Below are positions 20,463 to 40,504 of a DNA stretch of 64,000 nucleotides, piece after piece (the stretch's first letter is position 1; each line of letters starts with the position of its first letter). This DNA is from an uncultured Chloroflexia bacterium. GTDB lineage: Bacteria; Chloroflexota; Limnocylindria; QHBO01. The notes under the pieces were generated by a model, which worked only from the letters and a program-made list of their open reading frames with translations, was not told where the DNA came from and did no database searches. Location: contig CAWEDO010000002.1 in NCBI GenBank assembly GCA_963807915.1, positions 297,502 through 361,501 of the forward strand, in the 5' to 3' direction. A program made the translations under genes and the position numbers.

Positions 20463-21668
20463 CTAGACCCGGCCTCGCGGCACGGTGTGCCAGTACGTCT
20501 TGTTGAACACGATCTTGCCCAAGTGCCAGAAGCGGTTCGGCTTCGGTGGCCGCGGCGGGTGGTCGTAGTCGAACTGGAGGAGCGTCCCCTTCCCGTCGCC
20601 GACCTCGAAGAAGCACATCACCTTGCCGGTGTAGCTGGCGTGCTTCCGTTGCGGCTCGCGCTCCTGGATCTCCGACGCGATGAGCTCCGCCACGATCGGC
20701 GCCTCGAAGTGGGCGGTCGAGCCGGCCTTCGAGAGCGGCAGGTCGGTGGCGTCCCCCAGCGCGTAGACGTTGGGACGTCCGCCGACGCGGAGGGTGTGGT
20801 GGTCCGTCGGCAGCCAGCCGCTGGCCGGCGCGAGACCGGAGTCGATGACGAGCTTCGAGCCCCGATGCGGGGGCACCAGGATCAGCAGGTCGTACGGCAG
20901 CTCCTCGCCCTCGAGGCTCTGCACCACCTTGCGCGCCGGGTCGATGGACTCGACGTTGAAGAAGGTGTGGAGCTCGATCCCCTTCTCGGCGAGGATCGGG
21001 GTTGCCATCTCCGAGACGCTCTCGATCGTGAAGGCGCGCCCGATGGGGCTGCAGTAGTCGATCTGGCTCTGTTCACGAAGCCCGCGCTCGCGGAGCTCGG
21101 ACTCGATCAGGAAGGCGACCTCGAGCGGCGCCGGTGGGCACTTGTACGGCATCCCGGCGATGCCGATCACGATCCGGCCGCCGGTGAACGCGTCGAGCGC
21201 GTGCCGCAGCTCGAGCGCGGCGGCCGCGGTGTAGAAGTGCTGCGCCTCCTCGTTGAAGTGCTCGATCTCCTCGGGCACGATCCTCGAACCGGTCGCGATC
21301 ACGAGCTGGTCGTAGCCGATGGAGCTGCCATCGGACATCTCGATCTGGCTCTTGGCCTCGTCGATGCGGACCGCCTTGCCCACCTTGAGCTGCACCTCCT
21401 CGTCGAGGAGGCTGCGCTCCGGCCGCGTCAGCTTCTCTGCCCGTTCGCCTCCCATGGCGATGTACATGAAGCCCGGCTGGTAGACGTGGTTGCCCATCTC
21501 GTCGACGAGCGTCACGCTCGCTTCACTGCGATCGATGTCATGGCGAAGCTTGCGCACCAGCAGGTTGGCGACGAGCGTCCCCCCGACGCCGCCGCCCAGG
21601 ATCACGACGCGGTTCACGGCGAGCCTCCTAGCGCAGCTTCTCGACCACGATCTCGTCGTAGCCATCAC
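20463..21668 (-). CDS. sqr: sulfide:quinone oxidoreductase (SQR) family flavoprotein
   Basis: N-terminal VVILGGGVGGTLVANLL FAD motif, conserved GMPYKCPPAPLE cysteine motif and a second Cys in KVMCFFE. The start may be the GTG at about 21617 (VNRVVILGGG) rather than the ATG at 21668, which overlaps the tusA-like gene. Confidence 0.75.
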   Translation of the reverse strand: MMATTRSWSRSCARRLAVNRVVILGGGVGGTLVANLLVRKLRHDIDRSEASVTLVDEMGNHVYQPGFMYIAMGGERAEKLTRPERSLLDEEVQLKVGKAVRIDEAKSQIEMSDGSSIGYDQLVIATGSRIVPEEIEHFNEEAQHFYTAAAALELRHALDAFTGGRIVIGIAGMPYKCPPAPLEVAFLIESELRERGLREQSQIDYCSPIGRAFTIESVSEMATPILAEKGIELHTFFNVESIDPARKVVQSLEGEELPYDLLILVPPHRGSKLVIDSGLAPASGWLPTDHHTLRVGGRPNVYALGDATDLPLSKAGSTAHFEAPIVAELIASEIQEREPQRKHASYTGKVMCFFEVGDGKGTLLQFDYDHPPRPPKPNRFWHLGKIVFNKTYWHTVPRGRV

Positions 21669-21873
21669 GGGTCTCGACGCCGACCAGGCGGTGGCCGGCC
21701 TTCTCGACCCACTTGGGGATATCCATCTTCGAGCCCGCGTCGCTGGAGTAGACGGCGATCAGGTCGCCGACCTGCCCTTCGCGAATGGCGCGGATCAGCT
21801 CCATCAGCGGTCCGGGGCAGTAGCTGCCGCGGGCGTCGACGGTGCGGGTGACTGGCGTTGTCAGGGTCTGCAC
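21628..21873 (-). CDS. tusA: TusA-family sulfurtransferase
   Basis: 81 aa with the CPGP motif (DARGSYCPGPLMELIRAI), which is the TusA/SirA two-layered alpha/beta fold signature. Confidence 0.8.
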   Translation of the reverse strand: MQTLTTPVTRTVDARGSYCPGPLMELIRAIREGQVGDLIAVYSSDAGSKMDIPKWVEKAGHRLVGVETRDGYDEIVVEKLR

Positions 21874-21901
21874 GGAATACCGTCCTTCTCGAACGTCTCT
21901 T

Positions 21902-22459
21902 CTAGATGAAGAGGCTTGCGTCGGCGTTGGTCATCAGCTCGAGTGCCGCAGCGGCACCAACCGCCGGCTCGACGCCGTCGATGAGCTGGTCGGCGCTGAT
22001 GCCCATCATGTCCATGCTCATCTGGCACGGGATGAGGCGAACGCCGAGTGCCTGCGCCATTTCGAGCAGCTCGCGTGGCTCGGCCACGCCGTACTGCTTG
22101 GCGAGCTTCTTCATCATCCAGGGGCCCATCCCCGCGAAGTTCAGCTTGCTGAGCTTGGCGTGATCGATCCCGGGGCGATTCATCATCGCCAGCATCTTCT
22201 GCATCCAGTTGGTGCCGGTGATCCGGACCTCGGGACGCACGAGCGCGAAGAGGCCCCAGAAGGTGAAGAAGATCGAGACCTTCATCTCCCCCGCGGCGGC
22301 GGTGCTGGCCAGGATGGTGGTGGCCCATGTTCGCTCGAGGTCGCCGCTCTCGGCGACGATCACGAGCTCCTTGGTCTTGACGTCCCCTTCGGTGATGGGG
22401 TCATCCAGCCCTTCGACCAGCGCGGTCGGCAGGGCGGGACGAGTGAGTGTTGCGGTCAT
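21902..22459 (-). CDS. DsrE/DsrF-like (COG2210) sulfur-relay protein, long form
   Basis: 185 aa starting MTATLTRP (verified ATG at 22457-22459). Conserved Cys in LIPCQMSMDMMG and C-terminal ...ASLFI resemble DsrE3-type proteins. The upstream 66 codons of the six-frame ORF are shadow. Confidence 0.65.
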   Translation of the reverse strand: MTATLTRPALPTALVEGLDDPITEGDVKTKELVIVAESGDLERTWATTILASTAAAGEMKVSIFFTFWGLFALVRPEVRITGTNWMQKMLAMMNRPGIDHAKLSKLNFAGMGPWMMKKLAKQYGVAEPRELLEMAQALGVRLIPCQMSMDMMGISADQLIDGVEPAVGAAAALELMTNADASLFI

Positions 22460-22467
22460 TTCAGGCC

Positions 22468-22704
22468 TCACTTCTTGCGGAGCAGGTAGCGGAAGACATT
22501 GCCGTCGACCGATGACTCGACCAGCGTGTGGCCGGTCGTCTTCGACCAGGCGATGAAGTCCTTGGTGGATCCGGGATCGGTGGCGAGTACCTCGACCAGG
22601 TCGCCGGAGGCCAGCTCCTTGATCGCCAGCGCCGTCTTCACGATCGGCAGCGGGCACGACAGGCCACGGGCATCGACGGTCTTTGTGGCGGCGGTAAGGG
22701 TCAT
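22468..22704 (-). CDS. tusA: TusA-family sulfurtransferase
   Basis: 78 aa with the CPLP motif in DARGLSCPLPIVKTALAIKEL. Start ATG verified at 22702-22704. Confidence 0.8.
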   Translation of the reverse strand: MTLTAATKTVDARGLSCPLPIVKTALAIKELASGDLVEVLATDPGSTKDFIAWSKTTGHTLVESSVDGNVFRYLLRKK

Positions 22705-22724
22705 TGCGTGGTTCCCTTCAGGCT

Positions 22725-23138
22725 TCAGATGAAGACGACCTGACCCTCGCCGGCGGCGAGCCAGAAGGCGGTGACGCCCTCCACCCCGTCGACCAGCGGG
22801 TCGAGGTCGGCTTCGGTGATTCGGAGGAGATCCATGGAGAGGGTGCAGGCCTGGATCTCGACCCCGCCGAGCTCCTTCGCCTGCCGCATCGTTTCGTGCC
22901 ACGGTGCCTGCCCTGCGGCTCGCAGCGCCGTGGTGGCCTCGAGGCCCTCGGCGCCGGCCTCGGGAGCGAGCCCATGGTCGTCGGCGATCCGGTCGGCCCG
23001 GAAGGCGTCGAGCGCCCAGTACTGGAGGAAGACGTGCACCGGGCGACCGATCGCGGCCGCGCCGGCGGTCAGCACCGCTGCGGCGTTGAGCTTGTCGTCG
23101 GTGCCGGAGAACATCACGAGTGAGAGGGTCTGGTCCAT
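22725..23138 (-). CDS. DsrE/DsrF-like (COG2210) sulfur-relay protein
   Basis: 137 aa with MFSGTDDKL N-terminus, conserved Cys in EIQACTLSMD and C-terminal GQVVFI. Paralogous to the 40505-40912 protein. Confidence 0.7.
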   Translation of the reverse strand: MDQTLSLVMFSGTDDKLNAAAVLTAGAAAIGRPVHVFLQYWALDAFRADRIADDHGLAPEAGAEGLEATTALRAAGQAPWHETMRQAKELGGVEIQACTLSMDLLRITEADLDPLVDGVEGVTAFWLAAGEGQVVFI

Positions 23139-23144
23139 CGGTTC

Positions 23145-23495
23145 CTACCTGTGGCCGGCCGCGGCCGGGATGGGGACGTCCACCGGTCGCGCCGAGAGCT
23201 CGGCGAGGCGGGCCAGGCGTCGTTGGAGAGCTGCGCGCATGAGGCGGCAGGCGGCGATGATGTCCGGGTCCGCCAGGCGGTACCGGATCTCACGCCCGTC
23301 GCGCTCGGCGAGCACCAGGCCCGCGGCGCGCATCAGCGCCAGGTGCTGGGAGACGTTTGGCTGAGCGAGCGCCATCCGTTCGGCCAGGTGGCCGACCGTC
23401 ATCGGTTCGTCAGCCAGCAGGTGCGCCATCTCCAGGCGCCGAGCATTGCCGAGCATCTTGAGAACGTCGGCCTGGAGCTCGTAGATCGGTTCCAT
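23145..23495 (-). CDS. ArsR/SmtB-family transcriptional regulator
   Basis: Winged HTH (LGNARRLEMAHLLADEPMTVGHLAERMALAQPNVSQHLALMRAAGLV) with a single Cys (IAACRLM) in the C-terminal helix. Paralogous to 40909-41283. Confidence 0.85.
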   Translation of the reverse strand: MEPIYELQADVLKMLGNARRLEMAHLLADEPMTVGHLAERMALAQPNVSQHLALMRAAGLVLAERDGREIRYRLADPDIIAACRLMRAALQRRLARLAELSARPVDVPIPAAAGHR

Positions 23496-23640
23496 GTCGC
23501 AACGATGCGACGCATGCGCATCTGCGCATCAGTGCCGTGGTGCCCGTCATCGGATGACATCCGGCATGGCCACCAATGCCGACCGGCGCCGTGGTGCGGT
23601 AGCTGGCGGACTGGGCGACTCCCGAGGACCGTCCGGGTCG

Positions 23641-25281
23641 TCAGCCGGCGCCGGACAGCTCCTGCAGGGTCCGCCAGTTGGCGAGGCGGTCCTCCTGGGT
23701 CGCCAGGATCTCCGGCGTCGGAGCGCCATCGTCCGGGAAGTGCTGCCGGAAGCGTCCCTCGGTGCGGGCGAACGCGAGGAAGTCGACCACGCTGCCGCCC
23801 GGCACGGTGTACCAGTCCTCCCGCGGGGCGGGGTTGCCCTGGAGGCTGAGCCGTTCGGCGATGGTCGGTCCCTTGCGCGGATCGTAGACGAAGAGCGGGA
23901 AGGCCCGCGAGCTGACGGCCAGCTTGGCCTGCGCGGTCGACGCGTCATCCGCGATGCCATGCTCCGGTTGGCACGGGGTGTAGACGACCACCACGGCGGG
24001 ACCCGGGTACTCGTTGGCCTCCATCACCGCCCGATAGAAGTGGTTGATGTGCGCGGGCGTCGTCTGCGCGACGTACACCTCGCCGTGACTCATCAGGATC
24101 CGGCCCAGCTCCTTGCGACGCTCGGCGCGTCCGTGCAGCTCCTTGCCGAAGGCCGACAGCTTCGTGACCTGGCCGCCGAAGGTCGCGGTCGAGGCCTGGC
24201 CGCCGGTGTTGGAGTAGACCTGCGTGTCGAGGACCATGACCTTGATGTCCGCGCCGGAGGCGACCATGCGCGAGAGCGACTGGAAGCCGATGTCGTACAT
24301 CGCGCCGTCGCCGCCGATCACCCAGAGCTTCCGGTCGGCGTGGCCCGCCTGGTCCCAGCGCGCCCGGATGCCCATCGCATCGGCCGGCGCGTTCTCGAAC
24401 AGCGAGTTGGTCCACGGCACGAGGAAGGGGTTGTACGGGTAGGTGGCGCCGTAGACGGTGTTGCAGCCGGTGGCCGCCACGATCCCCATCGATTCGGGGC
24501 CGTGAACCTGCCGGGTGGCGGCGACGAGCATCCGGATCGCGGACGCTTCGCCACAGCCGGCGCAGCTTCCCGCGCCGCCGACGTAGCCGATGGCGTGCTC
24601 GCCGAGCATCAGGTCCGCGAGCGCCTTCTCGGAGCGGTACTCGGCCGGGGTGGGCGGCAGGGAGCGGAAGAAGGCCATGTCGCGGGCGTATCGGTCCAGG
24701 GTGGACTCGCCCGACGGCTCCTCGGCGACCTTGGTTTGCATGTGGAGCGCGTCGTAGCCGAGGGCGTGGCAGACCTCGACGCACTCGGCGCAGCCCTTGC
24801 AGTGCACCGGGTCGACGAAGATCCCGAAGCCAGCCGGCTCGTGGCCCTTCTTGGCGGGCAGCTCGGCGTATTTCGTGGTCTGCGCGAAGTGGCTCCGCGC
24901 GGTCGTCTCGGCGAGCTCGGGCGCCGCCTGGCTGGCGGCGAAGCTCGGGATGAGCTGGTCGAGCTGACTGTTCGGCAGCGCCACCCCCAGGATCGCGCTG
25001 TCCGGGCAGGCGTTGACGCAGGTCATGCAGCCGACGCAGCGGTCGGCGATCAGCTCGGGGATCTGCGGCGCCAGGTGGCTGAAGTCGCGGACCGCCGCGG
25101 TTCCCGGCGGGATGATGCTGCGCGCGACGCCGGCATCGGCGGGGAGGCCCGCGTCGGCGGTACCCCGTCCGTAGGCGGGAACGATCCCGCGGTTGAAGTC
25201 GTCGACGTAGGCGTGAACGTCGAACAGCGGCAGCGCCGCGGCTGCTCGCGTCTCGGCGACCTCCTTGGGCTCAGTGATCAT
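23641..25281 (-). CDS. pyruvate/2-oxoacid:ferredoxin oxidoreductase, beta-type subunit (di-[4Fe-4S] domain plus TPP-binding domain)
   Basis: Two ferredoxin motifs (CVGCMTCVNACP and CKGCAECVEVCH) followed by the TPP-binding GDGAMYDIGFQSL motif. Collinear with domains V-VI of single-chain PFOR/NifJ. Confidence 0.8.
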   Translation of the reverse strand: MITEPKEVAETRAAAALPLFDVHAYVDDFNRGIVPAYGRGTADAGLPADAGVARSIIPPGTAAVRDFSHLAPQIPELIADRCVGCMTCVNACPDSAILGVALPNSQLDQLIPSFAASQAAPELAETTARSHFAQTTKYAELPAKKGHEPAGFGIFVDPVHCKGCAECVEVCHALGYDALHMQTKVAEEPSGESTLDRYARDMAFFRSLPPTPAEYRSEKALADLMLGEHAIGYVGGAGSCAGCGEASAIRMLVAATRQVHGPESMGIVAATGCNTVYGATYPYNPFLVPWTNSLFENAPADAMGIRARWDQAGHADRKLWVIGGDGAMYDIGFQSLSRMVASGADIKVMVLDTQVYSNTGGQASTATFGGQVTKLSAFGKELHGRAERRKELGRILMSHGEVYVAQTTPAHINHFYRAVMEANEYPGPAVVVVYTPCQPEHGIADDASTAQAKLAVSSRAFPLFVYDPRKGPTIAERLSLQGNPAPREDWYTVPGGSVVDFLAFARTEGRFRQHFPDDGAPTPEILATQEDRLANWRTLQELSGAG

Positions 25282-25702
25282 CGATCTGCTCCAGCAGGTC
25301 GGCCAGCGCGCGGACCAGGTCGGTGGTCGAGATGACGCCCACCGGGTGCTCGCCGTCCGGCGCCACGACCACGAGCCGATGCACGTGATGCTGTTCCATC
25401 AGCCGCGCCGCGGTCAGGAGCGTCTCGTCGAGGCGGATCGTGAGGGCGGGAGATGTCATCAGGTGGCGCACCGTCAGTCGCGGCCAGCTGGCGAGGGGCT
25501 GTCCTGAGGCCAGCGCCCGCACGATGTCGGTCTGGCTGAGGACGCCCTGCAGACGACCCACGCGATCGACGACCGGCAGGCCGGTGATGCCGCGGCCGCT
25601 CATCAGGCGCTCGGCGCGGTCGACCGATTCGTCGATCGAGATCGTGACCGGTTCGATGGTCATCAGCTCGCCCACGGTGGGGCCGGTGGTGTGGGTGGTC
25701 AC
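25271..25702 (-). CDS. CBS-pair domain protein
   Basis: Two CBS motifs (LMTIEPVTISIDESVDRAERLM..GITGLPVVD and HLMTSPALTIRLDETLLTAARLM..HRLVVV). Inserted between the two PFOR subunit genes with overlaps at both ends. Confidence 0.75.
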   Translation of the reverse strand: MTTHTTGPTVGELMTIEPVTISIDESVDRAERLMSGRGITGLPVVDRVGRLQGVLSQTDIVRALASGQPLASWPRLTVRHLMTSPALTIRLDETLLTAARLMEQHHVHRLVVVAPDGEHPVGVISTTDLVRALADLLEQIDDH

Positions 25703-27684
25703 GGAAGCGCCTCCTCCAGAATCGGTGGTGCGGCGACCGTCAGCGACCGGATCGGCCCGTCGACCGACCCGAGCGCCGCGGTGACGTCGATGACGCCGTC
25801 GTACGCATCGGCGATGACGGCCAGGTTTGCATCCACGACCTTCGCGCCGCGCTTGCCGAAGGAGCGCTGCAGGCCAGGCCGGATGCGCTCGAGCAGCGCT
25901 TTGCGATCAAGGCCGGCCTGCTCCGCGAAGGGGGTTACGCGAAGGAAGACGCCAACCAGCGCGACGCCCTGCATCCGCACCTCGAGGTCCGGGCGCGGCG
26001 AGCGGGCGCGGGCCAGCTTGGCGGTGTCGAGCGCGACGAGGCGAATGGAGCGCGCGATCATCTCGGCGCGGGCGGCCGCCGGCAGGGATGCCCAGATCTC
26101 CTCCGCGTCGGTGAGCGCGGTCTGCAGGAAGAGCGTGCCGCCGTCCACCAGTCCGTGCAGCGGCGCGCCGTAGCGGAAGACCGCGCTGTCCTGGACCGGG
26201 ACGAAGTCGACCTCCTGGAGCTCGGCATGCTGGCGGATCGGCTCGTCGGCGATGGTGAGGAAGTAGGTGGTCGGCAGCCCCTTCTTTTCGGAGCCGTAGC
26301 GCGGATAGGCCTGCACGTAGCGGCCGAAGAGGTCAGCCACCACGGTCGCGATGAGCCGGTTCGAGCTGACCGATCCGAAGCCGCCGACCGAGTGCCCGCG
26401 CAGGCTGTAGGCACCCGCCGGGCGAAGGTGGAGCGGCTCTGGTGCGAGCGCGTCCGGATGCGAAACGCCGAGGACGACCCGGCGACGCTGCCGTACGGCA
26501 TCGGCATCGGCCAGCCACTCGAAGACGGCAGCGAGGTCCCCCGCCGACACGTCTCGCGAACCGAGCCCGGCCGACGCGGAGACGACGCGCGGCAGGGGTG
26601 CCCCGTCGACGGCGCGGTCAGCCAGGGCGGCCTTCAGCTCCCGGGTCAGCGGGTTGTCGACCGCGGCGGGCTCGTCGGTGCGCTCGACCACGCCAATGAC
26701 CAGCGCGTTCCGGACGGCATGTGTCAGCTCTTCGGCCGGGAAGGGACGGAAGACGGTCACCGCGGCGCAGCCAACCCTGCGTCCCTGGCGGCGAAGGTGG
26801 TCGACCACGGTGATCGCCGTCTCGGCGATGGTGCCCATCGCGACGAGGATCTCCTCGGCGTCTTCGCAGCGGTAAGCCTGGACGGGGGCGTACGTGCGCC
26901 CGGTCAGCTGCTCCCACTCGGCGAACGCCTCGACGAGCGCGACTCGCTGGCGCTCGACGAAGGCGCGTTGCGCCACGCGACCCTTCATGTAGCTGTCCTG
27001 GTTGGCCACCACGCCGGTCATCAGCGCTTCGGCAGGGTCGAAGAGGTCAAGCAGCCGCGCGCGTGGATCGCCGACGAACGTGCGCAGCAGCTCGTCCTCC
27101 GGCAGCAGGATGTTCTCGAGGGTATGCGTCGTCAGGAACCCGTCCTGGCAGACGAGGATGGGCGTCTCGCTCGCCTCTGCCGCTCGACGGCCGATCGCCG
27201 CCAGGTCTGCCGCTTCCTGAGCATTCCGGGCGAAGACGATCCCCCAGCCGCAGTCGGCGACGCCCATCACGTCGTCGTGTCCGGCGTGGATGTTCAGCGC
27301 CTGGCTGGTCAGCGCCCGCGCGCCAACATGGAAGAGGATTGGCAGTCGCTTGCCGCTGATCGCGTAGAGGACCTCCTTCATGAGGATCAGGCCCTGCCCC
27401 GAGGTGAAGTTGGTGACGCGCCCGCCGGCGAGGGCGAAGCCCTCCGCAGCCGTCGCGGACGAGTGCTCGGACTCTGGCTCCAGGAAGCGCAGCGGCGTCC
27501 CCCACAGGTTCCCCTTGCCGTCTGCTACCGCGGCCTGGAAGATGGCCGCCATGGTCGTCGACGGGGTGATCGGGTAGGCGCAGCAGCCCTCGCTGACGCG
27601 GGTCTCGACGTGGGCAACCGCCTCCGACCCGTCGGCGATGGTGGGGATGCCGGGAAACGGGACAGGGACGGAGGCTCGGCTCAT
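25699..27684 (-). CDS. pyruvate/2-oxoacid:ferredoxin oxidoreductase, alpha-type subunit (PFOR domains I-III)
   Basis: PFOR N-terminal IADGSEAVAHVETRVSEGCCAYPITPST, with downstream domains II-III. Start ATG verified at 27682-27684. The upstream 111 codons of the ORF are shadow. Confidence 0.8.
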   Translation of the reverse strand: MSRASVPVPFPGIPTIADGSEAVAHVETRVSEGCCAYPITPSTTMAAIFQAAVADGKGNLWGTPLRFLEPESEHSSATAAEGFALAGGRVTNFTSGQGLILMKEVLYAISGKRLPILFHVGARALTSQALNIHAGHDDVMGVADCGWGIVFARNAQEAADLAAIGRRAAEASETPILVCQDGFLTTHTLENILLPEDELLRTFVGDPRARLLDLFDPAEALMTGVVANQDSYMKGRVAQRAFVERQRVALVEAFAEWEQLTGRTYAPVQAYRCEDAEEILVAMGTIAETAITVVDHLRRQGRRVGCAAVTVFRPFPAEELTHAVRNALVIGVVERTDEPAAVDNPLTRELKAALADRAVDGAPLPRVVSASAGLGSRDVSAGDLAAVFEWLADADAVRQRRRVVLGVSHPDALAPEPLHLRPAGAYSLRGHSVGGFGSVSSNRLIATVVADLFGRYVQAYPRYGSEKKGLPTTYFLTIADEPIRQHAELQEVDFVPVQDSAVFRYGAPLHGLVDGGTLFLQTALTDAEEIWASLPAAARAEMIARSIRLVALDTAKLARARSPRPDLEVRMQGVALVGVFLRVTPFAEQAGLDRKALLERIRPGLQRSFGKRGAKVVDANLAVIADAYDGVIDVTAALGSVDGPIRSLTVAAPPILEEALP

Positions 27685-27847
27685 CGGGCCTATGGTCTGC
27701 CCCGCGCCCGCGTGCCGATGAGTGCCGCGCGGACCCTCAGGGCATGACCTCCGGCCCCTCTCCGTTGGGACCACCCTGTAACGTCGCCCGTACGGTTTGG
27801 TGAGGGCCATCTGCCCCACCATGCCGATCCGCCCAGGAGAAGAACCG

Positions 27848-28378
27848 ATGCGTCTCGCCACCACCATGGCCGCCGGCGCCCTGCTGCTCGTCGCCTGCAC
27901 CCCGCAGACCGGCGCCGGGAGCGGGGCGCCGAGCACGGAGCCGAGCAGCGCCGCCGCCATCCAGATCACCGTCTCCCACACCGCCGCCGGCGACGCGCTC
28001 GCCGGACCGAACGGCATGACGCTCTACATCCTTGCGAACGACACCAACGGCACGAGCACCTGCAACGAGGGCTGCGCGGCGACGTGGCCGCCGCTGCTGG
28101 GTGACGGCTCGGCCGTCGTCGCGGGTGACGGCGTGGCCGGCACCTTCGGCACCACCATCAGGGATGACGGCACCAAGCAGGTGACCCACAACGGACAGCC
28201 GCTCTACTCCTACGCGAGCGACACGGCCGCCGGCGACTCGACCGGGGATGGAGTCGGGGGCGTGTGGTTCATCGCGCCGGTCGGGGCGGCATCGGCCAGC
28301 CCGCGGGCGAGCAGCGGTGAGCACGAGTCGGAGACGCCGGAGCCCTCGGCGACGCCATACCGAGCGCCCGGCTACTGA
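27848..28378 (+). CDS. secreted lipoprotein with Y-x-aromatic-x-x-D repeats (COG4315-like)
   Basis: Lipobox LLLVACT. Repeated GxTLYxxxxD-like units (GMTLYILAND, GQPLYSYASD). Confidence 0.6.
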   Translation: MRLATTMAAGALLLVACTPQTGAGSGAPSTEPSSAAAIQITVSHTAAGDALAGPNGMTLYILANDTNGTSTCNEGCAATWPPLLGDGSAVVAGDGVAGTFGTTIRDDGTKQVTHNGQPLYSYASDTAAGDSTGDGVGGVWFIAPVGAASASPRASSGEHESETPEPSATPYRAPGY

Positions 28379-31854: not shown

Positions 31855-32346
31855 ATGCTGTCACTCCCTGCGACATCCCACGAGCACCACCAGGAGATCG
31901 AGCGGCACCTTGACCGGCTCCCGCAACTCGCCGACATGATCGGTCGTTCGACGCCAGAGGCCTTCTCCAGTGCATTCCAGCAGGAGTGCCGCTTCATCGT
32001 GAGCCAGCTGGTGCCTCACATGGAGGCGATCGAGACGAGCCTGTACGGGCGGCTCGAGCAGATCATGGACGGGCGCCACTCGATGGCCCCAATGCGCCGG
32101 GAACATGAGCAGCTGCGCGGGCTGTTCGCGTCACTCTGCCGGTACCGCGAGCTCGCAGCCGACGAAGGGCTGACAGACGCGGACGAGATCGGCCTGCGGC
32201 GCGTGCTCTTCCGGTTCTACGCGATGATGAAGGTCCACCTGACAGAAGAGGATCTTTACCTCGGCGTGCTGGACCGAAACCTCACCGCCGATGAAAAGGA
32301 TGCGCTCGCCAGGGGCATCGACCATGCCGGTGCGACGCCGCTCTAG
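31855..32346 (+). CDS. hemerythrin HHE cation-binding domain protein
   Basis: His/Glu ligand pattern (HHQEIERHL, HMEAIE, HSMAPMRREHEQL, KVHLTEED). Paralogue of 32877-33371. Confidence 0.7.
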   Translation: MLSLPATSHEHHQEIERHLDRLPQLADMIGRSTPEAFSSAFQQECRFIVSQLVPHMEAIETSLYGRLEQIMDGRHSMAPMRREHEQLRGLFASLCRYRELAADEGLTDADEIGLRRVLFRFYAMMKVHLTEEDLYLGVLDRNLTADEKDALARGIDHAGATPL

Positions 32347-32876: not shown

Positions 32877-33371
32877 TCAGAGCGCCGTGATGCCGCTGTG
32901 GTCCATCGCCGCGGCGAGCTTCTCCGCGCTCTCGGGCGAGGCACCACGTTCGATGATCCTGAGATAGAGCTGCTCCTCCGCGAGGTGGACCTTGAGGATG
33001 CTGTAGAGGCGGAAGATGACGCGGCGCAGTGCGACCGTCTCGTTCGTCTGCAGGGGTCCCACCTCGAGCCGGTGCTGCAACCGGACGAGCTCCGCCACAA
33101 GCAGGCGGATCTCATCGTGCTCGCGGCGCATCGGCGTCATCGAATGGCGGTTCTGGAGCATGCGCTCCAGCTCGGCATACAGGGTCTTCTCGGCCGTCTC
33201 CATGTGCGGAAGGAGCAGGCCTTCGAGAAAGGCGGCCACCTCTGCCAGGTGCGGCCGGAGCTCGGCAACGGGGGCGGAACCGACCAGGTCACCCACCGCA
33301 GGCATCGAGTCCAGGTGGTGGGTCAGCCGTTCGTGGTGTTCCAGGGAAACGTGGGTCAGGCTCGCGGTCAT
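32877..33371 (-). CDS. hemerythrin HHE cation-binding domain protein
   Basis: 164 aa from MTASLTH (ATG verified 33369-33371). Shares the His/Glu ligand pattern with 31855-32346. The upstream 170 codons of the ORF are shadow. Confidence 0.7.
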   Translation of the reverse strand: MTASLTHVSLEHHERLTHHLDSMPAVGDLVGSAPVAELRPHLAEVAAFLEGLLLPHMETAEKTLYAELERMLQNRHSMTPMRREHDEIRLLVAELVRLQHRLEVGPLQTNETVALRRVIFRLYSILKVHLAEEQLYLRIIERGASPESAEKLAAAMDHSGITAL

Positions 33372-33415
33372 TTCAGACCTCCTTGTGAGTCGATGGTGGT
33401 GTGGACGTCGTCCTC

Positions 33416-34609
33416 TCAGCCATTCGCGCCCCCTTCCGTGACCCCGTCGTTCGGGGTGCCCGCCAGCGCCAGGAAGAACAGGGCGACCGGCCGGTAGACC
33501 GCGTGGGCGAGTTTCATGAACGGGGCCAGGATCACGAGCTCCATGGCGATCGCCACGTGGAACAGGAACACCCAGTAGCCCCAGGCCGGAACACCCGGGA
33601 GGTAGAGAGCCAGCTCCAGGCCGAAGCCGGTCACGCCGGTGATCCAGACGAGCGCCAGGAGGGTCCAGTCCGCGCTGGTCGAGTGGCGCACGGAGCGTTC
33701 GATGCCCCGATAGCGCTGCAGGATGAGCATCGTTGCGCCGTACACCAGCAGGATCCCCGCCGCCGTGCCGAGCAGGCGGACGGGATACCAGATCGGGACC
33801 GGCGTACCGGTTGCCTTGATCCCCACGAGCGCGAGTCCGTAGTCGAGGATCGTCGCCGCGAGCAGGCCCAGGAAGCCCCACATCGTGGCCGCGTGGATGA
33901 ACCAGCGGCGAAGGAACCAGGGTTGCTGGATCGCGTCCGCATCGCAGTCCTCGCGATAGCGGCGCTGGCCAAGCGTCTCAACCGCGACTGCGCTCCAGAG
34001 CGCGCGAATCGTGCGGAACAATGCGCTGCGGCCGCCAAGGGTGGAACGCAGCGTCACGCCCCCGGCGCGGCCGACGGCCCTGGCCATGGTGACGACGCCG
34101 ATGAGACCGGCGGCGAAGACGATGACCATGATCCCGATCCCCGCGTTATGGATCAGCTCCTCGGGGATGAAGCCGAAGATGTCGAGCGAGGCCGCACTCT
34201 GCGCGCCGTGGCCCGCATACATGAAGAGGGCGAAGAGCGCCGCCAGGGCGACCGCGATCACGGTCCCGATCACGGGTCGGGTGTACATCGTTCGAGCCAG
34301 CCCGGTCCGGTCGTAGTTGGCGATCGCGTAGCGCCGCGCGGCCGCCATGAACTCGCTCGGCTCCGCCTGGGTCGGGCATGACTCGGAGCACTCCCCGCAG
34401 GCATAGCAGGTCCACAGCTCCTTGCTCGACAGGAGCTGGTCGCGCAGGCCCACCTGTGCGAGGCGGATCAACCGCCGGGGGAAGGTGGCGTCGTCGCTGA
34501 CCAGGGGGCAGGTCGCCGTGCAGGTCCCGCAGCTGAAGCAGGCCGACACGTCCGCCGCGCCGTAGCGCTTGATGTCGGCGAGCAGGCCGAGCTGTACGGT
34601 GGCGGTCAT
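33416..34609 (-). CDS. QmoC-like membrane subunit: HdrC-type di-[4Fe-4S] domain fused to an HdrE/NarI-type heme-b membrane domain
   Basis: Two CxxCxxCxxxCP motifs (CFSCGTCTATCP, CYACGECSESCP), then five or six TM helices with conserved His (HAATMWGF, FHVAIAM, KLAHAVYRP) typical of di-heme b NarI/HdrE/DsrM. Confidence 0.75.
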   Translation of the reverse strand: MTATVQLGLLADIKRYGAADVSACFSCGTCTATCPLVSDDATFPRRLIRLAQVGLRDQLLSSKELWTCYACGECSESCPTQAEPSEFMAAARRYAIANYDRTGLARTMYTRPVIGTVIAVALAALFALFMYAGHGAQSAASLDIFGFIPEELIHNAGIGIMVIVFAAGLIGVVTMARAVGRAGGVTLRSTLGGRSALFRTIRALWSAVAVETLGQRRYREDCDADAIQQPWFLRRWFIHAATMWGFLGLLAATILDYGLALVGIKATGTPVPIWYPVRLLGTAAGILLVYGATMLILQRYRGIERSVRHSTSADWTLLALVWITGVTGFGLELALYLPGVPAWGYWVFLFHVAIAMELVILAPFMKLAHAVYRPVALFFLALAGTPNDGVTEGGANG

Positions 34610-34866
34610 GAGGGCTCCTTCGCAGTCTGCCTGACGATCGCTTCGTAGCGGAAGTAGCCATCGTCGGTGGCGCCCTTGACCTCCTGGACGTGCCCGTAGC
34701 GGCGCATGCCCATCACCCAGAAGACGACCTCGTGGGTGGGCACGGCGAGCTCCGCGGCGATCTCCGGGATGGTCCGCGCTCCTCCGTGCAGGAAGGCCAG
34801 GATCTGGGCGCGCATGACCGGCTCCTCACGGACGATCTCGCGCAGGGCTCGATTCGGGGCATTCAT
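34606..34866 (-). CDS. small winged-helix-like protein (86 aa), function unknown
   Basis: ATGA-coupled between the hdrA-like and qmoC-like genes. MNAPNRALREIVREEPVMRAQILAFLHGGARTIPEIAAELAVPTHEVVFWV suggests a wHTH. Start ATG verified at 34864-34866. Confidence 0.55.
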   Translation of the reverse strand: MNAPNRALREIVREEPVMRAQILAFLHGGARTIPEIAAELAVPTHEVVFWVMGMRRYGHVQEVKGATDDGYFRYEAIVRQTAKEPS

Positions 34867-36605
34867 GCGATCGGCACCTCCAGGAGGCTGTCGATCATGG
34901 AGGTGACCTGGGCGTTGGTGTAGCCGAGCAGGTCGATGGCGCCCTCCGGGCAGACGGGGACGCAGCCACCGCAGCTCTTGCATCCGGTTGCGCTGATGGT
35001 CGCCACCGCCTTGCCATCCACGGTCGCCATCTCGATGGCGGCATAGGGACAGGCGGTGATGCACAGCTCGCAGCCCGTGCAGGTGTCGGTGTCCACGATC
35101 GCCACCAGCGGGTCGAGCTCGGCGAAGCCCTTCTTGAGGATCACCGCGCTCTGCGTGACGGCGGCAAGGCCCGACGCAACGCTCTCGCTCGAGTTCCTGG
35201 GACCCTGGCAGGCGCCGGCGATGTACACCCCGTCGACCATGGTCTCGACCGGGCGCAGCTTGGGATGGATCTCGTTGAAGAAGCCGTCCTTCCCCAGGGG
35301 GAGCTTGAGGAGGCCATTCAGCTCCTCGTTCCTGCGCGGGATCATCCCGGTGACCAGCACCACGAGGTCTGCCGGGATGGCGATCTCCTCCGTTCCGGTC
35401 AGGAGGTCGCGCACGGTGACCACCAGGCGGCCAGAGCCATCCTGGGCGACGGCCGGTGGTGCATCGTCGGCGAACTTGAGGTAGACCGATCCGAGCTCGC
35501 GCGAGGTGGTGTACATCGGCTCGAACTTGCCGTAGGTGCGCATGTCCCGGTAGAGGTGGTACTGGTGCACTTGCGCGTCCCGGGAGGAGACCTGGATCGA
35601 GGCGGCGACGGTCGCCGCGCAGCAGTAGCGCGAGCAGTACTGGTTGCCGTCGGGCTTGTCCGCGGGCTCGCGGCTGCCGACGCAGTAGACGTACACGACG
35701 CTCTCGACCGGCTTGCCGTGGAACTCCAGGCGGCCTGCCGAACGGTCGATCATCTGCTTGAACTCCGGCAGGGTCACCACCCCGTCGATCCCGTAGCCGT
35801 ACTCGCCCACCTCCGGCTGGTAGGCATCGAAGCCGGTGGCGACGATGATCGAGCCAACCTCGACGGTGAGCGTCTCGCCGCCCGGTCCGCCCAGGCGGAT
35901 GCCGGCGGTGTAGTTGCCGAAGCTGCCGGACTTGCTGATCAGCTCGGCTCCGGTGAAGACGTTGATCGCGGGGCGCTGCTCGATGCCCTCGATCAGCTCC
36001 GCGATGAGCGCTCGGCCATTCTTGCCGGTCGGGTACATCTCCTCGAACCCGCCGACCCAGCCGCCGAGCGTGGTCTCGCGCTCGACCAGGAAGACGCCGA
36101 GGCCGATGTCGGCCAGCCCGATGGCCGCGCGCAGCCCTGCGACGCCGCCGCCCACCACCAGCGTCTTCTGCGTCGTCTCGACGACGATCGGCTCCAGTGG
36201 TTCGGTCAGGCGGGTGCGGGCGATGCCGGCCTTGACCAGGCCGATGACCTTGTTGGTGGTGGCCTGCAGGTCATCCGATTGGACCCACGAGGCCTGCTCG
36301 CGCACGTTGACCTGGGTGTATTCGTACGGGTTGAGGCCGGCCCGATTGGCCACCGCCCGGAATGTGACGACGTGGAGCTTCGGCGAGCAGGACGCGACCA
36401 CCATGCCGTCGAGCTGCTGCTGCTCGATGTCGCGCTCCATCTCCCCCTGGCCCGAATCCGAGCAGGCGAACATCATCTGCCGGGCCACCACCACGCCCGG
36501 CTCAGCCTCGGCCGCGGCGACGACCTGGTCGATGTCGACGTGGTCGGAGATGTTGCCGCCGCAGTGGCAGACGTAGACCCCGATCCGGCGCTCGGTCTCG
36601 CTCAT
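34863..36605 (-). CDS. hdrA: heterodisulfide reductase subunit A (HdrA)-like FAD/FeS flavoprotein
   Basis: N-terminal IGVYVCHCGGNIS cluster motif, FAD-binding VVGGGVAGLRAA, Cys-rich inserted domain (CSRYCC) and C-terminal 2x[4Fe-4S] (CTGCELCITACP, CKSCGGCVPVCP). ATG 36605 is ATGA-coupled to the upstream gene, and the remaining 380 codons of ORF 34863-37751 are shadow. Confidence 0.8.
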   Translation of the reverse strand: MSETERRIGVYVCHCGGNISDHVDIDQVVAAAEAEPGVVVARQMMFACSDSGQGEMERDIEQQQLDGMVVASCSPKLHVVTFRAVANRAGLNPYEYTQVNVREQASWVQSDDLQATTNKVIGLVKAGIARTRLTEPLEPIVVETTQKTLVVGGGVAGLRAAIGLADIGLGVFLVERETTLGGWVGGFEEMYPTGKNGRALIAELIEGIEQRPAINVFTGAELISKSGSFGNYTAGIRLGGPGGETLTVEVGSIIVATGFDAYQPEVGEYGYGIDGVVTLPEFKQMIDRSAGRLEFHGKPVESVVYVYCVGSREPADKPDGNQYCSRYCCAATVAASIQVSSRDAQVHQYHLYRDMRTYGKFEPMYTTSRELGSVYLKFADDAPPAVAQDGSGRLVVTVRDLLTGTEEIAIPADLVVLVTGMIPRRNEELNGLLKLPLGKDGFFNEIHPKLRPVETMVDGVYIAGACQGPRNSSESVASGLAAVTQSAVILKKGFAELDPLVAIVDTDTCTGCELCITACPYAAIEMATVDGKAVATISATGCKSCGGCVPVCPEGAIDLLGYTNAQVTSMIDSLLEVPIA

Positions 36606-39310
36606 GCCAGGGCCTTCGCGCGCTCGAGGTAGGCGGCAACCTGGGCGACCGTCGAGCCGGCATGCAGGATCGAATCGGCGATGTCCTTGGCGCCCGATGC
36701 GGCACCGGCGACGTACACGCCGTCGATGCTCGTCTGGCCCGGGTTGGCGTCCTCGTCGGTCTCGGCGACATACGAGTACTCGTCCGTCGAGAGGGCCCCC
36801 ATCGGGAAGAGGGCCTGGGCGTCGCTGTTGGGCTGAACGCCCACCGCGAGCACGACGAGGTCGTACTCCGCTTCGACGATCTGACCGCCGTGCTCGATGT
36901 CCTCGTAGCGCAGGACCAGGTCGCCGTTGTCCTTCTCGGTGATCTTGGCCACGCGTCCCTTGACGTAGTTGGCGCCCATCGCCTTGGCCTGCTCGTAGAA
37001 CTCGTCGTAGCGCTTCCCGGGGGCACGGATGTCCATGTAGTGGACCGTCACGTCGGCCACCGGGAGGGCACCCATGATCAGCTGGTTCTGCTTGATCGAG
37101 TACATGCAGCAGAACCGCGAGCAGAGCGGGTTTCCGACGGTTTCGTCGCGCGATCCGGTGCAGAGGACGTAGGCGATGCGATCGGGCACCTTGCCGTCCC
37201 CCGGCCGCAGGATGGTGTTGAACGGCCGCGTCGGGGCCAGCAGGCGGTCCATCTGCATGCCGGTGATCACGTTCTTGAAGGTGCCGTAGCCGTATTCCGG
37301 CTTCAGGTCGGCGGCGAACAGCTTGAAGCCGGTCGCGACCACGACCGCGCCGACCTCGACATCGAGAACCTCGTCGCGAGCCCGCAGGTCGATGCACTGG
37401 TCCACGGGACAGGCGTCGACGCACTCGCCGCATTCGGAGCAGACGCCGCAGTCCAGGCACAGGCCGGCGCCGCGGTGGGCCTCCTCCTCTGTCATCGGCA
37501 GCTCGACCTCGCGGAAGTCGGTCGGGGCATCGCTCAGCACCTCGCTCGGACCTTCGGCCAGCGCCATGCGGTACGCCTTCTGGCGAGCGAGGACCTCTGT
37601 CTTGTCGACGACCGGGAGCCGCAGGTCGAAGCCATCGAGCTCCAGGCCATTGATCCAGCGATCGATCATGTGGGCTGCGCGCTGGCCCTGCCCCGTTGCC
37701 CGGGTGATGTCCGAGGCGCCCGAGACGACGTCGCCCGCGGCGAAGAGCCACGGCACGGCGCTCTGCAGCGTGCCCGGATCGACAGCGGCTCTTCCGCCGG
37801 CATCGGCCGTGACCTGGGCGCCAAAACCCTCGGTATCGGGCGCCATTCCGATCGCCGCGATGACGACATCGCCGGCGATCTCGAAGTCAAGGCCCGGGAT
37901 CGGCTCTGGCCGGCCGCGGCCGGTCGGCCCCGCGACGGATGGAGCCATGCGGGTGCAGCGAAGGGCGCGAGCCGCCCCGTTGCCGTCATCGAGGACTTCC
38001 GCTGGCGCCGCCTCGAAGACGAAGTGGACGCCTTCCGTCTCGGTGTCATCGGCCTCGACGTGGTGGGCCGGCATCTCGGCGCGGCTGCGCCGATAGACCA
38101 CGGTGACGTCGCGCGCACCCAGCCGGCGGGCGGTCCGTGCGGTGTCCATCGCGACGTTGCCGCCGCCGATGACCAGGACCCTCTTGCCCGCCAGGTCGAC
38201 GGGCTCGCCGAGCTTCACCCCACGCAGGAAGTCGACACCGCTGAGCACGCCATCGAGCTGGTCGCCGGGGATGCCGAGCTTCGTGGAGAGCGGCGTGCCG
38301 GTCGCCAGGAGGACGGCTTCGTAGCCCTCGGCGTGGAGCGCCTCGAGATCCGTCACCGGCGCGCTGGTGGCGATCTCGACGCCGAGCGCAGTGACGTTGG
38401 CGATGTCCTGCTCGACGACCTTCGCGGGCAGGCGATATCCGGGGATGGCCAGCCGCAGGAAGCCGCCGGCCTTCGGCGCGGCCTCGAAGATCTTGACCGC
38501 ATAGCCGCGGCGGGCCAGCTGCCAGGCCGCGGTCAGGCCGGTCGGTCCGGACCCGATGATGGCCACGCGGTGACCGTTCGGCTCCGGGATCGCGACTCCG
38601 GGGCCATCGAACTTCTCGTAGTGGATGTCGGCGATGAATCGCTTGAGGCGGCGGATCGGGATCGGTCCTTCGAGGGATCCTCGGGTGCAGTCGACCTCGC
38701 ACGGCGCGTAGCAGGCGCGACCCAGGGTGCCGACCAGCGGCGTCGCGTCGAGCACCAGCTGGAACGCCTTCTCGTACTCGCCACTGCGGATGAGCGAAAC
38801 GTAGCCGTGGGCCTGGATGCCGGCCGGACAGGCGTAGGAGCAGGGCGAGGACCCGGCTCGGTCGATGACCGCCTTCTTGGGCACCGCCTGGGGGAACGCG
38901 ATGTAGGCGGCTCGGCGCTGGACCATGTCGGCGTTGAACTGGTCGGGAACGGCCACGGTGCAGGCCGTCTCGCACAGCTGGCAGCCGGTGCAGGTCAGCT
39001 CGTTGACGAACCGCGCCTTGCGCGTGACCTTTGCCCGGAAGTGCCCATCGGCACCACGCTTGATCCCGTCGACCTCGCTGTAGGTCATGGTGGTGACGTT
39101 GGGGTGGTGGATCGACGCAGCCATCTTGGGGGTCGAGATGCAGCTGGCGCAGTCGAGGGTGGGGAACACCTTGCTGAGCAGGATCATCTTCCCGCCCACG
39201 CTGGCCTCCTTCTCGACCAGCAGCACCTTGTAGCCCATGTCGCCGAGCTTCAGCGCGGACTCCATCCCGCCGATGCCCGCGCCGACGACCATGACGTCGT
39301 AGTCGGTCAC
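36602..39310 (-). CDS. HdrA-like flavoprotein with inserted GltD/NfnB-type NAD(P)H-binding domain (HdrL-like)
   Basis: HdrA N-terminus (MTDYDVMVVGAGIGGMESALKLG..DCASC), ferredoxin motif (CTGCQLCETAC), GltD-type segment (CSYACPAG..VAIIGSGPTGLTAAWQLARRGYAVKIFE..RVLVIGGGNVAMDTARTARRLGA), second ferredoxin (CLDCGVCSECGECVDACP) and HdrA C-terminal FAD half (NPLCSRFCC..DGVYVAGAASG). Confidence 0.75.
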   Translation of the reverse strand: MTDYDVMVVGAGIGGMESALKLGDMGYKVLLVEKEASVGGKMILLSKVFPTLDCASCISTPKMAASIHHPNVTTMTYSEVDGIKRGADGHFRAKVTRKARFVNELTCTGCQLCETACTVAVPDQFNADMVQRRAAYIAFPQAVPKKAVIDRAGSSPCSYACPAGIQAHGYVSLIRSGEYEKAFQLVLDATPLVGTLGRACYAPCEVDCTRGSLEGPIPIRRLKRFIADIHYEKFDGPGVAIPEPNGHRVAIIGSGPTGLTAAWQLARRGYAVKIFEAAPKAGGFLRLAIPGYRLPAKVVEQDIANVTALGVEIATSAPVTDLEALHAEGYEAVLLATGTPLSTKLGIPGDQLDGVLSGVDFLRGVKLGEPVDLAGKRVLVIGGGNVAMDTARTARRLGARDVTVVYRRSRAEMPAHHVEADDTETEGVHFVFEAAPAEVLDDGNGAARALRCTRMAPSVAGPTGRGRPEPIPGLDFEIAGDVVIAAIGMAPDTEGFGAQVTADAGGRAAVDPGTLQSAVPWLFAAGDVVSGASDITRATGQGQRAAHMIDRWINGLELDGFDLRLPVVDKTEVLARQKAYRMALAEGPSEVLSDAPTDFREVELPMTEEEAHRGAGLCLDCGVCSECGECVDACPVDQCIDLRARDEVLDVEVGAVVVATGFKLFAADLKPEYGYGTFKNVITGMQMDRLLAPTRPFNTILRPGDGKVPDRIAYVLCTGSRDETVGNPLCSRFCCMYSIKQNQLIMGALPVADVTVHYMDIRAPGKRYDEFYEQAKAMGANYVKGRVAKITEKDNGDLVLRYEDIEHGGQIVEAEYDLVVLAVGVQPNSDAQALFPMGALSTDEYSYVAETDEDANPGQTSIDGVYVAGAASGAKDIADSILHAGSTVAQVAAYLERAKALA

Positions 39311-39753: not shown

Positions 39754-39766
39754 CAGGCTGTGGCGG

Positions 39767-40042: not shown

Positions 40043-40108
40043 CGGGGTGTCTCCTTGGTGTGTGCCTGGCCCTGGCAAGCGCCCGGCCAGCCTGTACGGC
40101 GTTGGGGC

Positions 40109-40474: not shown

Positions 40475-40504
40475 TTCGGGCTCCTTCCGATATCCAGTGC
40501 GCGT

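Follow-up and report, generated by a model that had tools for sequence, protein, structure and literature searches.

In Methylacidiphilum fumariolicum SolV, the genes for an SQR (sulfide:quinone oxidoreductase) of type III, a TusA and a DsrE2 (MFUM_v2_0219-0221) are co-transcribed, and their expression is 1.7-fold higher in sulfide-adapted cells (PMC10205796). This SQR is proposed to serve in sulfide oxidation, the product of the type III enzyme being elemental sulfur (PMC10205796), and characterized type III SQRs reduce quinone with sulfide (cited in PMC10205796). In the cst operon of Staphylococcus aureus and the yrkD-yrkJ / sqr-pdo genes of Bacillus, a repressor that responds to reactive sulfur stands over TusA, DsrE and SQR; the roles of YrkE, YrkI and CstA in these clusters are still undefined (PMC9918477). 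Here we describe a related gene set in a stretch of 64,000 nucleotides (hereafter, the window) from an uncultured Chloroflexia bacterium (assembly GCA_963807915.1, contig CAWEDO010000002.1, positions 297,502 to 361,501). Six genes, arsR, a short dsrE, tusA_a, a long dsrE, tusA_b and sqr, follow one another there, and we consider it rather probable that they form an autoregulated operon for sulfide oxidation at the membrane, the resulting sulfane sulfur being taken up on dedicated cytoplasmic carriers. The cassette extends a known theme and overturns no current ideas.

Like the Methylacidiphilum operon, the cassette joins a type III-like SQR to TusA and a DsrE2-family carrier. It differs in having two TusA and two DsrE2-type genes upstream of sqr and an ArsR with a conserved candidate operator; moreover, it belongs to another phylum. 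With the cst and yrk clusters it shares the combination of a repressor, TusA/DsrE carriers and SQR. However, those clusters have a CsoR-family repressor (CstR/YrkD) and a type II SQR, whereas an ArsR and a type III-like SQR are found here; they also encode TauE, a rhodanese and a persulfide dioxygenase, which our cassette lacks, and the S. aureus carriers are joined in a fusion protein, CstA. Thus, the cassette works like the cst operon but is not a member of that group. A further likeness is to the rhd-tusA-dsrE2 and dsrE3A-dsrE2B-tusA clusters (Allochromatium, Metallosphaera, sHdr-associated), in which single-Cys TusA and DsrE2-family carriers likewise lie beside a sulfur-oxidizing machine (PMC11094781, PMC4175335). 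In our case, SQR takes the place of rDsr or sHdr as the linked enzyme, and the cassette has neither a rhodanese nor a DsrE3.

The initial annotation had read the order as arsR, dsrE, tusA, long dsrE-like, tusA, sqr and a P2-type ATPase, and all seven genes are indeed in place, head to tail on the minus strand from 23495 down to 17946 (Table 1). The intergenic gaps from arsR through the ATPase gene are 6, 20, 8, 28, 10 and 12 nt, so that the last of them, given earlier as 13 nt, is one shorter. A Shine-Dalgarno-like motif precedes each gene downstream of arsR. The ATG of arsR itself has none, and therefore its transcript may be leaderless. The listed open reading frame of SQR is overlong; the real start is the GTG at 21617, which has GGAGG ahead of it and gives 384 residues, the length of essentially all homologues. 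Scans for consensus promoters and terminators returned nothing, as expected for a non-model organism of 70% GC, and an Rfam scan of 17.5-24.5 kb for structured RNA gave a single sub-threshold chance match.

This arrangement is not due to chance. A genome scan queried with the SQR yielded 80 loci (SQR identity 73-93%), onto which all window proteins were mapped, and 67 of these have enough sequence upstream for gene order to be counted. The full order arsR-dsrE(short)-tusA-dsrE(long)-tusA-sqr is found in 55 of the 67, in different genomes that nearly all belong to Chloroflexota class Limnocylindria, and the five structural genes without a detectable arsR in 11 of the 67. Shorter forms are seen in L019, with a minimal arsR-dsrE(short)-tusA_b-sqr, and in L028, with dsrE(short)-tusA_b-sqr on a contig that ends before the arsR position. 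In several arsR-less cassettes (L022, L047, L049, L074 and L077) a divergent gene upstream looks, by eye, like a hemerythrin gene. The nearest relatives of the window, whose GC content is about 70%, are metagenome-assembled genomes of the Chloroflexota class Candidatus Limnocylindria. Cassettes 76-93% identical to ours also occur in assembled genomes labeled Methylomirabilota, Steroidobacteraceae, Zixibacteria and Polarisedimenticolia (L001, L013, L015 and L043); these odd labels likely reflect mis-binned Limnocylindria contigs, the alternative being recent transfer. Horizontal transfer of the operon in the window was also considered, and composition gives no sign of it, with a GC fraction of 0.68-0.69 against a window mean near 0.69.

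The pairing of tusA with sqr reaches well beyond this class. Since the matches listed for SQR and ArsR were all at least 68% identical, distant contexts were taken from a plasmid collection searched by tblastn, which holds SQR homologues of 45% identity in Ca. Chlorohelix and of 37-42% in haloarchaea. A tusA gene lies immediately upstream of the SQR homologue in Chlorohelix, Halopiger and Haloarcula marismortui, that is, on two of the three haloarchaeal plasmids examined, and each of these upstream TusA proteins is most similar to TusA_b (48% identity in Chlorohelix, 36-37% in the haloarchaea). TusA-DsrE pairs are also nearby: in H. marismortui a TusA_a-like (44% identity) and long-DsrE-like pair just upstream, and in Chlorohelix a short-DsrE-like and TusA pair in the company of rhodaneses. 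The Halopiger and Haloarcula loci include an MBL-fold hydrolase and YeeE/YedE, and genes for thioredoxin or thioredoxin reductase are found at all three loci. These TusA-SQR(-DUF1641) pairs of haloarchaeal megaplasmids and Ca. Chlorohelix thus resemble the cassette in the directly upstream TusA_b-like gene, in an SQR identity of 40-45% and in the TusA-DsrE pairs. They are unlike it in having no ArsR or palindrome, in the additional DUF1641, MBL-fold hydrolase, YeeE/YedE, thioredoxin and rhodanese genes, and in carrying generic annotation only. Hence the pairing is recurrent, not universal, and the logic of carriers plus SQR that the initial annotation put forward recurs both in distant taxa and in published operons (PMC10205796, PMC9918477). 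Our literature search found no paper on tusA-sqr pairs as such, on TusA with SQR in haloarchaea, or on the cassette in Limnocylindria.

The sqr gene had been named from its sequence, and a grouping of its product with NDH-2 had been seen as the outcome that would speak against the name. Of the NCBIfam families, NF049943 (type III SQR) matches the flavoprotein over model positions 2-391 of 406 with 348 bits (E 7.5e-104), below a cut-off of 525 set for a model that was built for the selenoprotein subtype; the next-best family reaches 61 bits. In a phmmer search of the PDB the best matches are human SQOR (E 2e-33), flavocytochrome c sulfide dehydrogenase (FCSD; 4e-26) and Aquifex SQR (7e-19), with the SQRs of Acidianus and Acidithiobacillus also found, whereas NDH-2-type enzymes appear only at about 1e-8 (8e-9) and in partial alignments. 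Cys160, in KCPPAP, aligns with the KCAGAP motif of SQOR, and Cys335, in VMCFFE, with the second catalytic Cys; neither residue varies in any of the 80 loci. For comparison, the redox pair of type III SQR has been described as Cys159/Cys339 (PMC13047784). The flavin adenine dinucleotide (FAD)-binding Rossmann motif (GxGxxG) reads GGGVGG at residues 8-13 and is invariant in 22 homologues, and at the second nucleotide-binding region the sequence is IGIAGMPYKCPPAP, which resembles SQRs and not a GxGxxG site for NAD(P)H. The C-terminus, PKPNRFWHLGKIVFNKTYWHTVPRGRV, is aromatic and basic and likewise invariant. An AlphaFold model (predicted local distance difference test, pLDDT, 72; predicted template-modeling score, pTM, 0.72) retrieves SQRs first in Foldseek, with a template-modeling score of 0.74 to human SQOR. 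Ranks 1-23 are all SQR or FCSD with the exception of rank 19, a mitochondrial ATP-synthase-associated chain, and NDH-2 follows from rank 24. Because SQRs rank above NDH-2 in the PDB search, both redox cysteines align and Foldseek places SQRs first, the flavoprotein is, as far as sequence and fold tell, an SQR-family enzyme of type III-like character and not an NDH-2. The name therefore stands.

Ahead of sqr, two TusA and two DsrE-like carriers were expected from the initial annotation and are present, each with an invariant active-site Cys. In the short DsrE this is Cys98 (ACTLSMD), found in 74 of 75 orthologue alignments without substitution, and in the long DsrE the Cys of PCQMSMD, invariant in 77 of 77. 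The TusA motifs are Cys17-Pro-Leu-Pro in TusA_a and Cys19-Pro-Gly-Pro in TusA_b; of the orthologue alignments, 75 of 77 and 77 of 78, respectively, show this Cys, and again no substitution occurs. Both TusA proteins score above the PF01206 gathering score (80 and 74.6 vs 28.6 bits), and both DsrE proteins above the PF13686 threshold (56 and 148 vs 25 bits). The narrower models are not reached: for the E. coli-type TusA equivalog NF001423 (cut-off 78 bits), TusA_a reaches 54.4 and TusA_b 39.2 bits, and for the DsrE2 equivalog NF047629 the short and long DsrE score 25 and 83 bits against 210. By these profiles, TusA_a and TusA_b are to be classed as TusA-family proteins, not TusA orthologues. 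The nearest solved relative of the short DsrE is 2QS7 (E 1e-18), which has been named as a DsrE2B structure of archaeal origin (PMC11094781); for the long DsrE the nearest are 3PNX and 2QS7, with 3PNX the best. Compared with the short form, the long one has an insertion in its center, and its first 28 or so residues are poorly conserved. On reading the sequences, neither a signal peptide nor a hydrophobic N-terminus is found in any of the four carriers. Since the carriers are without signal peptides and the SQR opens directly with its Rossmann fold, the system would lie in the cytoplasm or on the membrane's cytoplasmic face.

The regulator, ArsR1, fits the ArsR/SmtB winged helix-turn-helix family (NF033788, 83.5 vs 55 bits), and its AlphaFold 2 model (pLDDT 86) has helices α1-α5 and a β-wing. 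It is like the repressors SqrR, BigR, SoxR, sHdrR, HlyU and YgaV in being an ArsR/SmtB repressor encoded with sulfide or sulfur oxidation genes that it presumably controls, and in being apparently autoregulatory with a palindromic promoter site. In those proteins, two shared cysteines are bridged by sulfur (PMC10451225). ArsR1 is different. The closest solved relative in the PDB is Rv0081 of Mycobacterium tuberculosis, and HlyU also aligned; in this alignment His25 of ArsR1 (EMAHLL) takes the position of the first sensing Cys of HlyU (QILCML). The model places His25 in α2 (residues 18-29) and the sole cysteine, Cys83, in the first two turns of α5 (78-102). When the ungapped HlyU alignment is extended, the canonical second Cys would sit at about Gln91, some 8 residues beyond Cys83. 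His25 is invariant in 59 of 59 orthologues and Cys83 in about 60, and both are kept in ArsR2, the paralogue that heads the second operon described below. Consistently, ArsR1 scores 50.5 bits against the BigR equivalog, for which the cut-off is 155. Sensing of the SqrR/BigR type was therefore rejected on residues, with His in place of the first Cys and no second Cys at the canonical site, and judging from these positions the sensing chemistry of ArsR1 cannot be that of SqrR/BigR. An α5 metal site of the SmtB/CzrA type was also considered and is unlikely: Asp76 and Asp78 match the first two ligands, and the partner positions are Gln and Arg.

Just upstream of arsR, 18-20 nt from the gene, lies the perfect palindrome ATGCGCA-NN-TGCGCAT. 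It is the sole exact match in the window and was also detected as inverted repeat I2. Exact copies occur exactly once in each of 31 loci, always just upstream of arsR, and with at most two mismatches the site is present in 47 of 58 ArsR-bearing loci at a fixed distance of 18-20 nt from the start codon. These arsR-linked palindromes make up essentially all of the roughly 53 sites with at most two mismatches in 1.3 Mb of loci, and the surrounding block GCACTGATGCGCAnnTGCGCAT is kept in about 60 orthologous regions upstream of arsR. Of the 13 loci scored as without an ArsR match, two have a palindrome less than 600 nt from dsrE: L044, with an exact palindrome, does carry arsR, and L003, with a site of two mismatches, is a locus whose sequence ends upstream. 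The comparative evidence is thus strong for an operator at this palindrome, to which ArsR would bind.

We propose the following scheme. An ArsR-family dimer would bind the 7-2-7 palindrome upstream of its own gene and repress arsR-dsrE2B-tusA-dsrE2-tusA-sqr, and rising reactive sulfur would release it. Because ArsR1 has one Cys and an invariant His and no Cys pair, the mechanism of release must differ from that of SqrR/BigR. The type III-like SQR would then oxidize HS- at the cytoplasmic face of the membrane, passing two electrons through FAD to quinone, with a persulfide formed on Cys160/Cys335. From SQR the sulfane sulfur may go to the TusA_b encoded next to it and then move onward, in the form of protein persulfides, between TusA_a and the two carriers of the DsrE2 family, a relay that would keep free polysulfide low. 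The sulfur would be delivered to a consumer, most plausibly the product of a Qmo/Hdr-like operon 17 kb from the cassette in the window.

Several observations weigh against this scheme. As to the sulfur sink, the Qmo/Hdr-like operon lies less than 10 kb from the cassette in only 1 of 80 loci, and searches of the cassette and of the whole 64 kb window revealed no rhodanese, persulfide dioxygenase (MBL-fold), TauE or sulfite exporter. As to the enzyme, residues 331-384 of the SQR, the presumed membrane anchor, have a pLDDT below 50 in the model. The adjacency of tusA and sqr is not universal: in Natrialba the order is sqr-DUF1641-cydAB, and on a Mycobacterium plasmid the SQR locus includes a gene for a CsoR-like regulator but lacks tusA. 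Finally, ArsR1 fails the Cys-pair test by which the sulfide-sensing ArsR group is defined, and we know of no established sulfur-sensing role for its closest solved relative, Rv0081.

The main rival explanation keeps the gene identities but loosens the coupling. SQR would release polysulfide or a low-molecular-weight persulfide, and TusA and DsrE would only scavenge or buffer it, as in a cst-like detoxification system. The elemental sulfur formed by the Methylacidiphilum enzyme and the modest 1.7-fold induction there are in line with this (PMC10205796), as are the undefined roles of YrkE, YrkI and CstA (PMC9918477) and the SQR homologues that have no adjacent tusA. However, from Limnocylindria to haloarchaea a TusA_b-type gene is kept immediately upstream of sqr, often overlapping it or only a few nt away, which fits a cognate partner better than a buffer; besides, the cassette has no persulfide dioxygenase with which a detoxification route would be finished. 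We therefore regard buffering alone as a real but distinctly less likely explanation than a dedicated relay.

A second question is whether the P2-type ATPase belongs to the system, for example by handling a cation whose homeostasis sulfide disturbs. The initial annotation had it directly downstream of sqr as an unexpected partner; the adjacency holds here, and the functional partnership does not follow from it, the gene being next to sqr in only 12 of the 74 loci in which this could be evaluated. The short gap of 12 nt, a Shine-Dalgarno-like G-run and the lack of any terminator found would suit a member of the operon, and adjacency at 15-17 nt is seen in 11 relatives and at 93 nt in one more, with orthologues less than 10 kb away in 15 loci. 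The protein is itself unusual. Its translation and an alignment with SPCA1 show the DKTGT phosphorylation motif and the TGDGVNDAPAL hinge, but M4 reads PEEPP where Ca2+-ATPases have PEGLP, and M6 reads LWLELFID, that is, E..D where SPCA1 has N..D; the best equivalog, of PMR1 type, is not reached (447 bits vs a cut-off of 798). These ion-site residues suggest a specificity different from that of the characterized Ca2+ pumps. In 62 of the 74 loci, however, among them the close relatives L003 and L012 (SQR identity 86-87%), the ATPase gene is not next to sqr, and unrelated genes take its place: a class III aminotransferase gene in 18 loci, and in the others genes that run in the opposite direction. 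Because of this 12-in-74 adjacency and the variable downstream gene, the ATPase was rejected as a core member of the cassette; it is a lineage-specific passenger neighbor, probably co-transcribed with sqr in this sub-lineage, and a role for it in sulfide metabolism is improbable.

Less probable still is a reversal of the chemistry, in which the flavoprotein would have carrier-bound sulfur as its substrate, for instance by reducing TusA or DsrE persulfides with quinol or NAD(P)H, and the operon would serve sulfur reduction or persulfide turnover. CoA-persulfide reductase and CoADR-RHD are indeed among the more distant Foldseek matches. Characterized type III enzymes, though, reduce quinone with sulfide (cited in PMC10205796). 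Moreover, SQRs and FCSD stand above all reductases by both sequence and fold, and the second nucleotide-binding region IGIAGMPYKCPPAP is SQR-like and not a GxGxxG site. A biosynthetic role of the carriers, in which they would mobilize sulfur supplied by SQR for molybdenum cofactor or thiolated tRNA, is very improbable: TusA has such roles in E. coli, and moaA and xdhC are in the window at 0.8-3 kb, but neither TusA reaches the E. coli equivalog (54 and 39 vs 78 bits), the molybdenum cofactor genes are at least 17 kb away in unrelated transcription units, and the partners of the cassette in other taxa are sulfur-oxidation genes.

Returning to the dedicated relay, its proposed consumer is encoded by an operon whose first genes had been described as a duplicate of the ArsR-DsrE-TusA module. 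Pairwise alignment of the two copies bears this out for ArsR1 and ArsR2 (47% identity) and for the short DsrE proteins (53%), but not for the module as a whole, as the third gene of the second operon encodes a PF02635 DsrE and TusA comes only fourth (TusA_c, 42% identical to TusA_b and 38% to TusA_a). Its HdrA-like protein, of 902 residues, is fused to a GltD/NAD(P)-binding module, and its QmoC-like protein scores 203 bits against a cut-off of 300; by its predicted products, the operon is a Qmo/Hdr-like complex tied to sulfur carriers, not the canonical sHdr set. The only direct hint of a functional link between the two operons comes from L064, where 2 kb separate the SQR cassette from the Qmo/Hdr-like operon downstream of it. 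An operator common to ArsR1 and ArsR2 was looked for and rejected: the window has the one exact palindrome, and its six sites with at most three mismatches are no more than expected by chance. Upstream of ArsR2 there is a different, AT-rich and imperfect palindrome, ATATACGCTT-T-AAGCATATAT, unrelated to the ArsR1 site; it lies in an unusually AT-rich intergenic region and is only partly conserved in L064.

The in vivo sulfane acceptor of bacterial and archaeal SQRs is poorly defined, most of all for type III, the least studied class. The retention of a tusA gene as the direct upstream neighbor of sqr in Limnocylindria, Chlorohelix and haloarchaea turns this into a concrete question, namely whether SQR loads its cognate TusA. 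We put forward, tentatively, that the physiological sulfane acceptor of type III SQRs may be a protein: the TusA encoded upstream would dock, leave as TusA-persulfide, and hand its sulfur to the DsrE2 proteins, which would pass it on. As part of the same speculative proposal, the ArsR with one Cys and one His may represent a new class of sulfur sensor, switched by an inter-subunit Cys83-Sn-Cys83' bridge or by direct transfer from the relay and not by an intramolecular Cys-Cys bridge. The cassette also offers an ArsR-type regulator with a well-defined candidate operator and a sensing chemistry that would be other than that of SqrR/BigR, and it marks an abundant, largely uncultured class of soil and freshwater bacteria as probable sulfide oxidizers.

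Table 1. Features of the SQR cassette, the second operon and their neighbors, with positions in the window
Feature	Position	Strand	Evidence or remark
P2-type cation ATPase, 834 aa	17946-20450	-	E1-E2_ATPase, Cation_ATPase_N and Cation_ATPase_C domains
Type III-like SQR, 384 aa	20463-21617	-	NF049943, 348 bits; PDB alignments; Foldseek
TusA_b, 81 aa, SQR-adjacent	21628-21873	-	PF01206, 74.6 bits
Long DsrE2-like carrier (DrsE_2), 185 aa	21902-22459	-	PF13686, 148 bits, full profile; start ATG at 22459
TusA_a, 78 aa	22468-22704	-	PF01206, 80 bits
Short DsrE2B-like carrier (DrsE_2), 137 aa	22725-23138	-	PF13686, 56 bits
arsR (ArsR1), ArsR/SmtB-family repressor, 116 aa	23145-23495	-	HTH_5, 42 bits; NF033788, 83.5 bits vs cut-off 55
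Intergenic promoter/operator region, PorB-like gene to arsR	23496-23640	-	Sequence reading; conserved block GCACTGATGCGCAnnTGCGCAT
7-2-7 palindrome, candidate ArsR operator	23514-23529	no strand	Exact-match scan and inverted-repeat detection
PorB-like protein	23641-25281	-	N-terminal ferredoxin domain
CBS-pair protein	25271-25702	-	
PorA-like protein	25699-28017	-	Alpha+gamma fusion
Hemerythrin (HHE) domain protein	31855-32346	+	
Hemerythrin (HHE) domain protein	32877-33881	-	
Qmo/Hdr-like operon	33416-41283	-	Order ArsR2, short DsrE2B-like, PF02635 DsrE, TusA_c, MvhD/FlpD, HdrA-like fusion, QmoB-like, QmoC-like
PF02635 DsrE	40109-40474	-	Third gene of the Qmo/Hdr-like operon
Short DsrE2B-like paralogue	40505-40912	-	53% identity; GTG start overlaps ArsR2 stop (GTGA)
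ArsR2, heads the Qmo/Hdr-like operon	40909-41283	-	47% identity to ArsR1, same His and Cys
Imperfect palindrome upstream of ArsR2	41319-41339		
YgaP-like transmembrane DUF2892 protein, 70 aa	41464-41676	+	Divergent from ArsR2
Open reading frame with sigma and anti-sigma regions, 242 aa	41789-42517	+	ECF sigma-70 regions 2 and 4, then zf-HC2
Two PspC-domain proteins and LuxR-type response regulator	44481-47606		

Some further observations concern the neighborhood of the cassette and of its relatives. The PorA-like, CBS-pair and PorB-like genes form a 2-oxoacid:ferredoxin oxidoreductase set, with the CBS gene wedged between the subunits, and in many Limnocylindria loci the trio is again found upstream of the SQR cassette, the distance varying. 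Its inclusion in the operon was considered and rejected: although it often lies less than 10 kb upstream, the genes in between vary and are unrelated (for example those for an EamA-type membrane protein and hypothetical proteins). On plasmid pNMAG02 of Natrialba magadii (L087, 3905-8235), genes for a DUF1641 protein and for subunits I and II of cytochrome bd oxidase come after that of the SQR homologue, a gene link that fits electrons passing from sulfide to a sulfide-tolerant oxidase.

Around the Qmo/Hdr-like operon, hemerythrin (HHE) domain proteins are encoded on its flank. The DUF2892 gene that diverges from ArsR2 has counterparts that adjoin the SQR loci of Haloarcula and of the Mycobacterium plasmid. 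Beyond it lies an open reading frame in which the ECF sigma-70 regions are followed by a zf-HC2 anti-sigma zinc finger; this could be one gene with sigma and anti-sigma parts fused, or two genes. Further along, the genes for a histidine kinase with a PspC domain and for a second PspC-domain protein lie beside that of a LuxR-type response regulator, and together they look like an envelope-stress two-component set unrelated to the operon.

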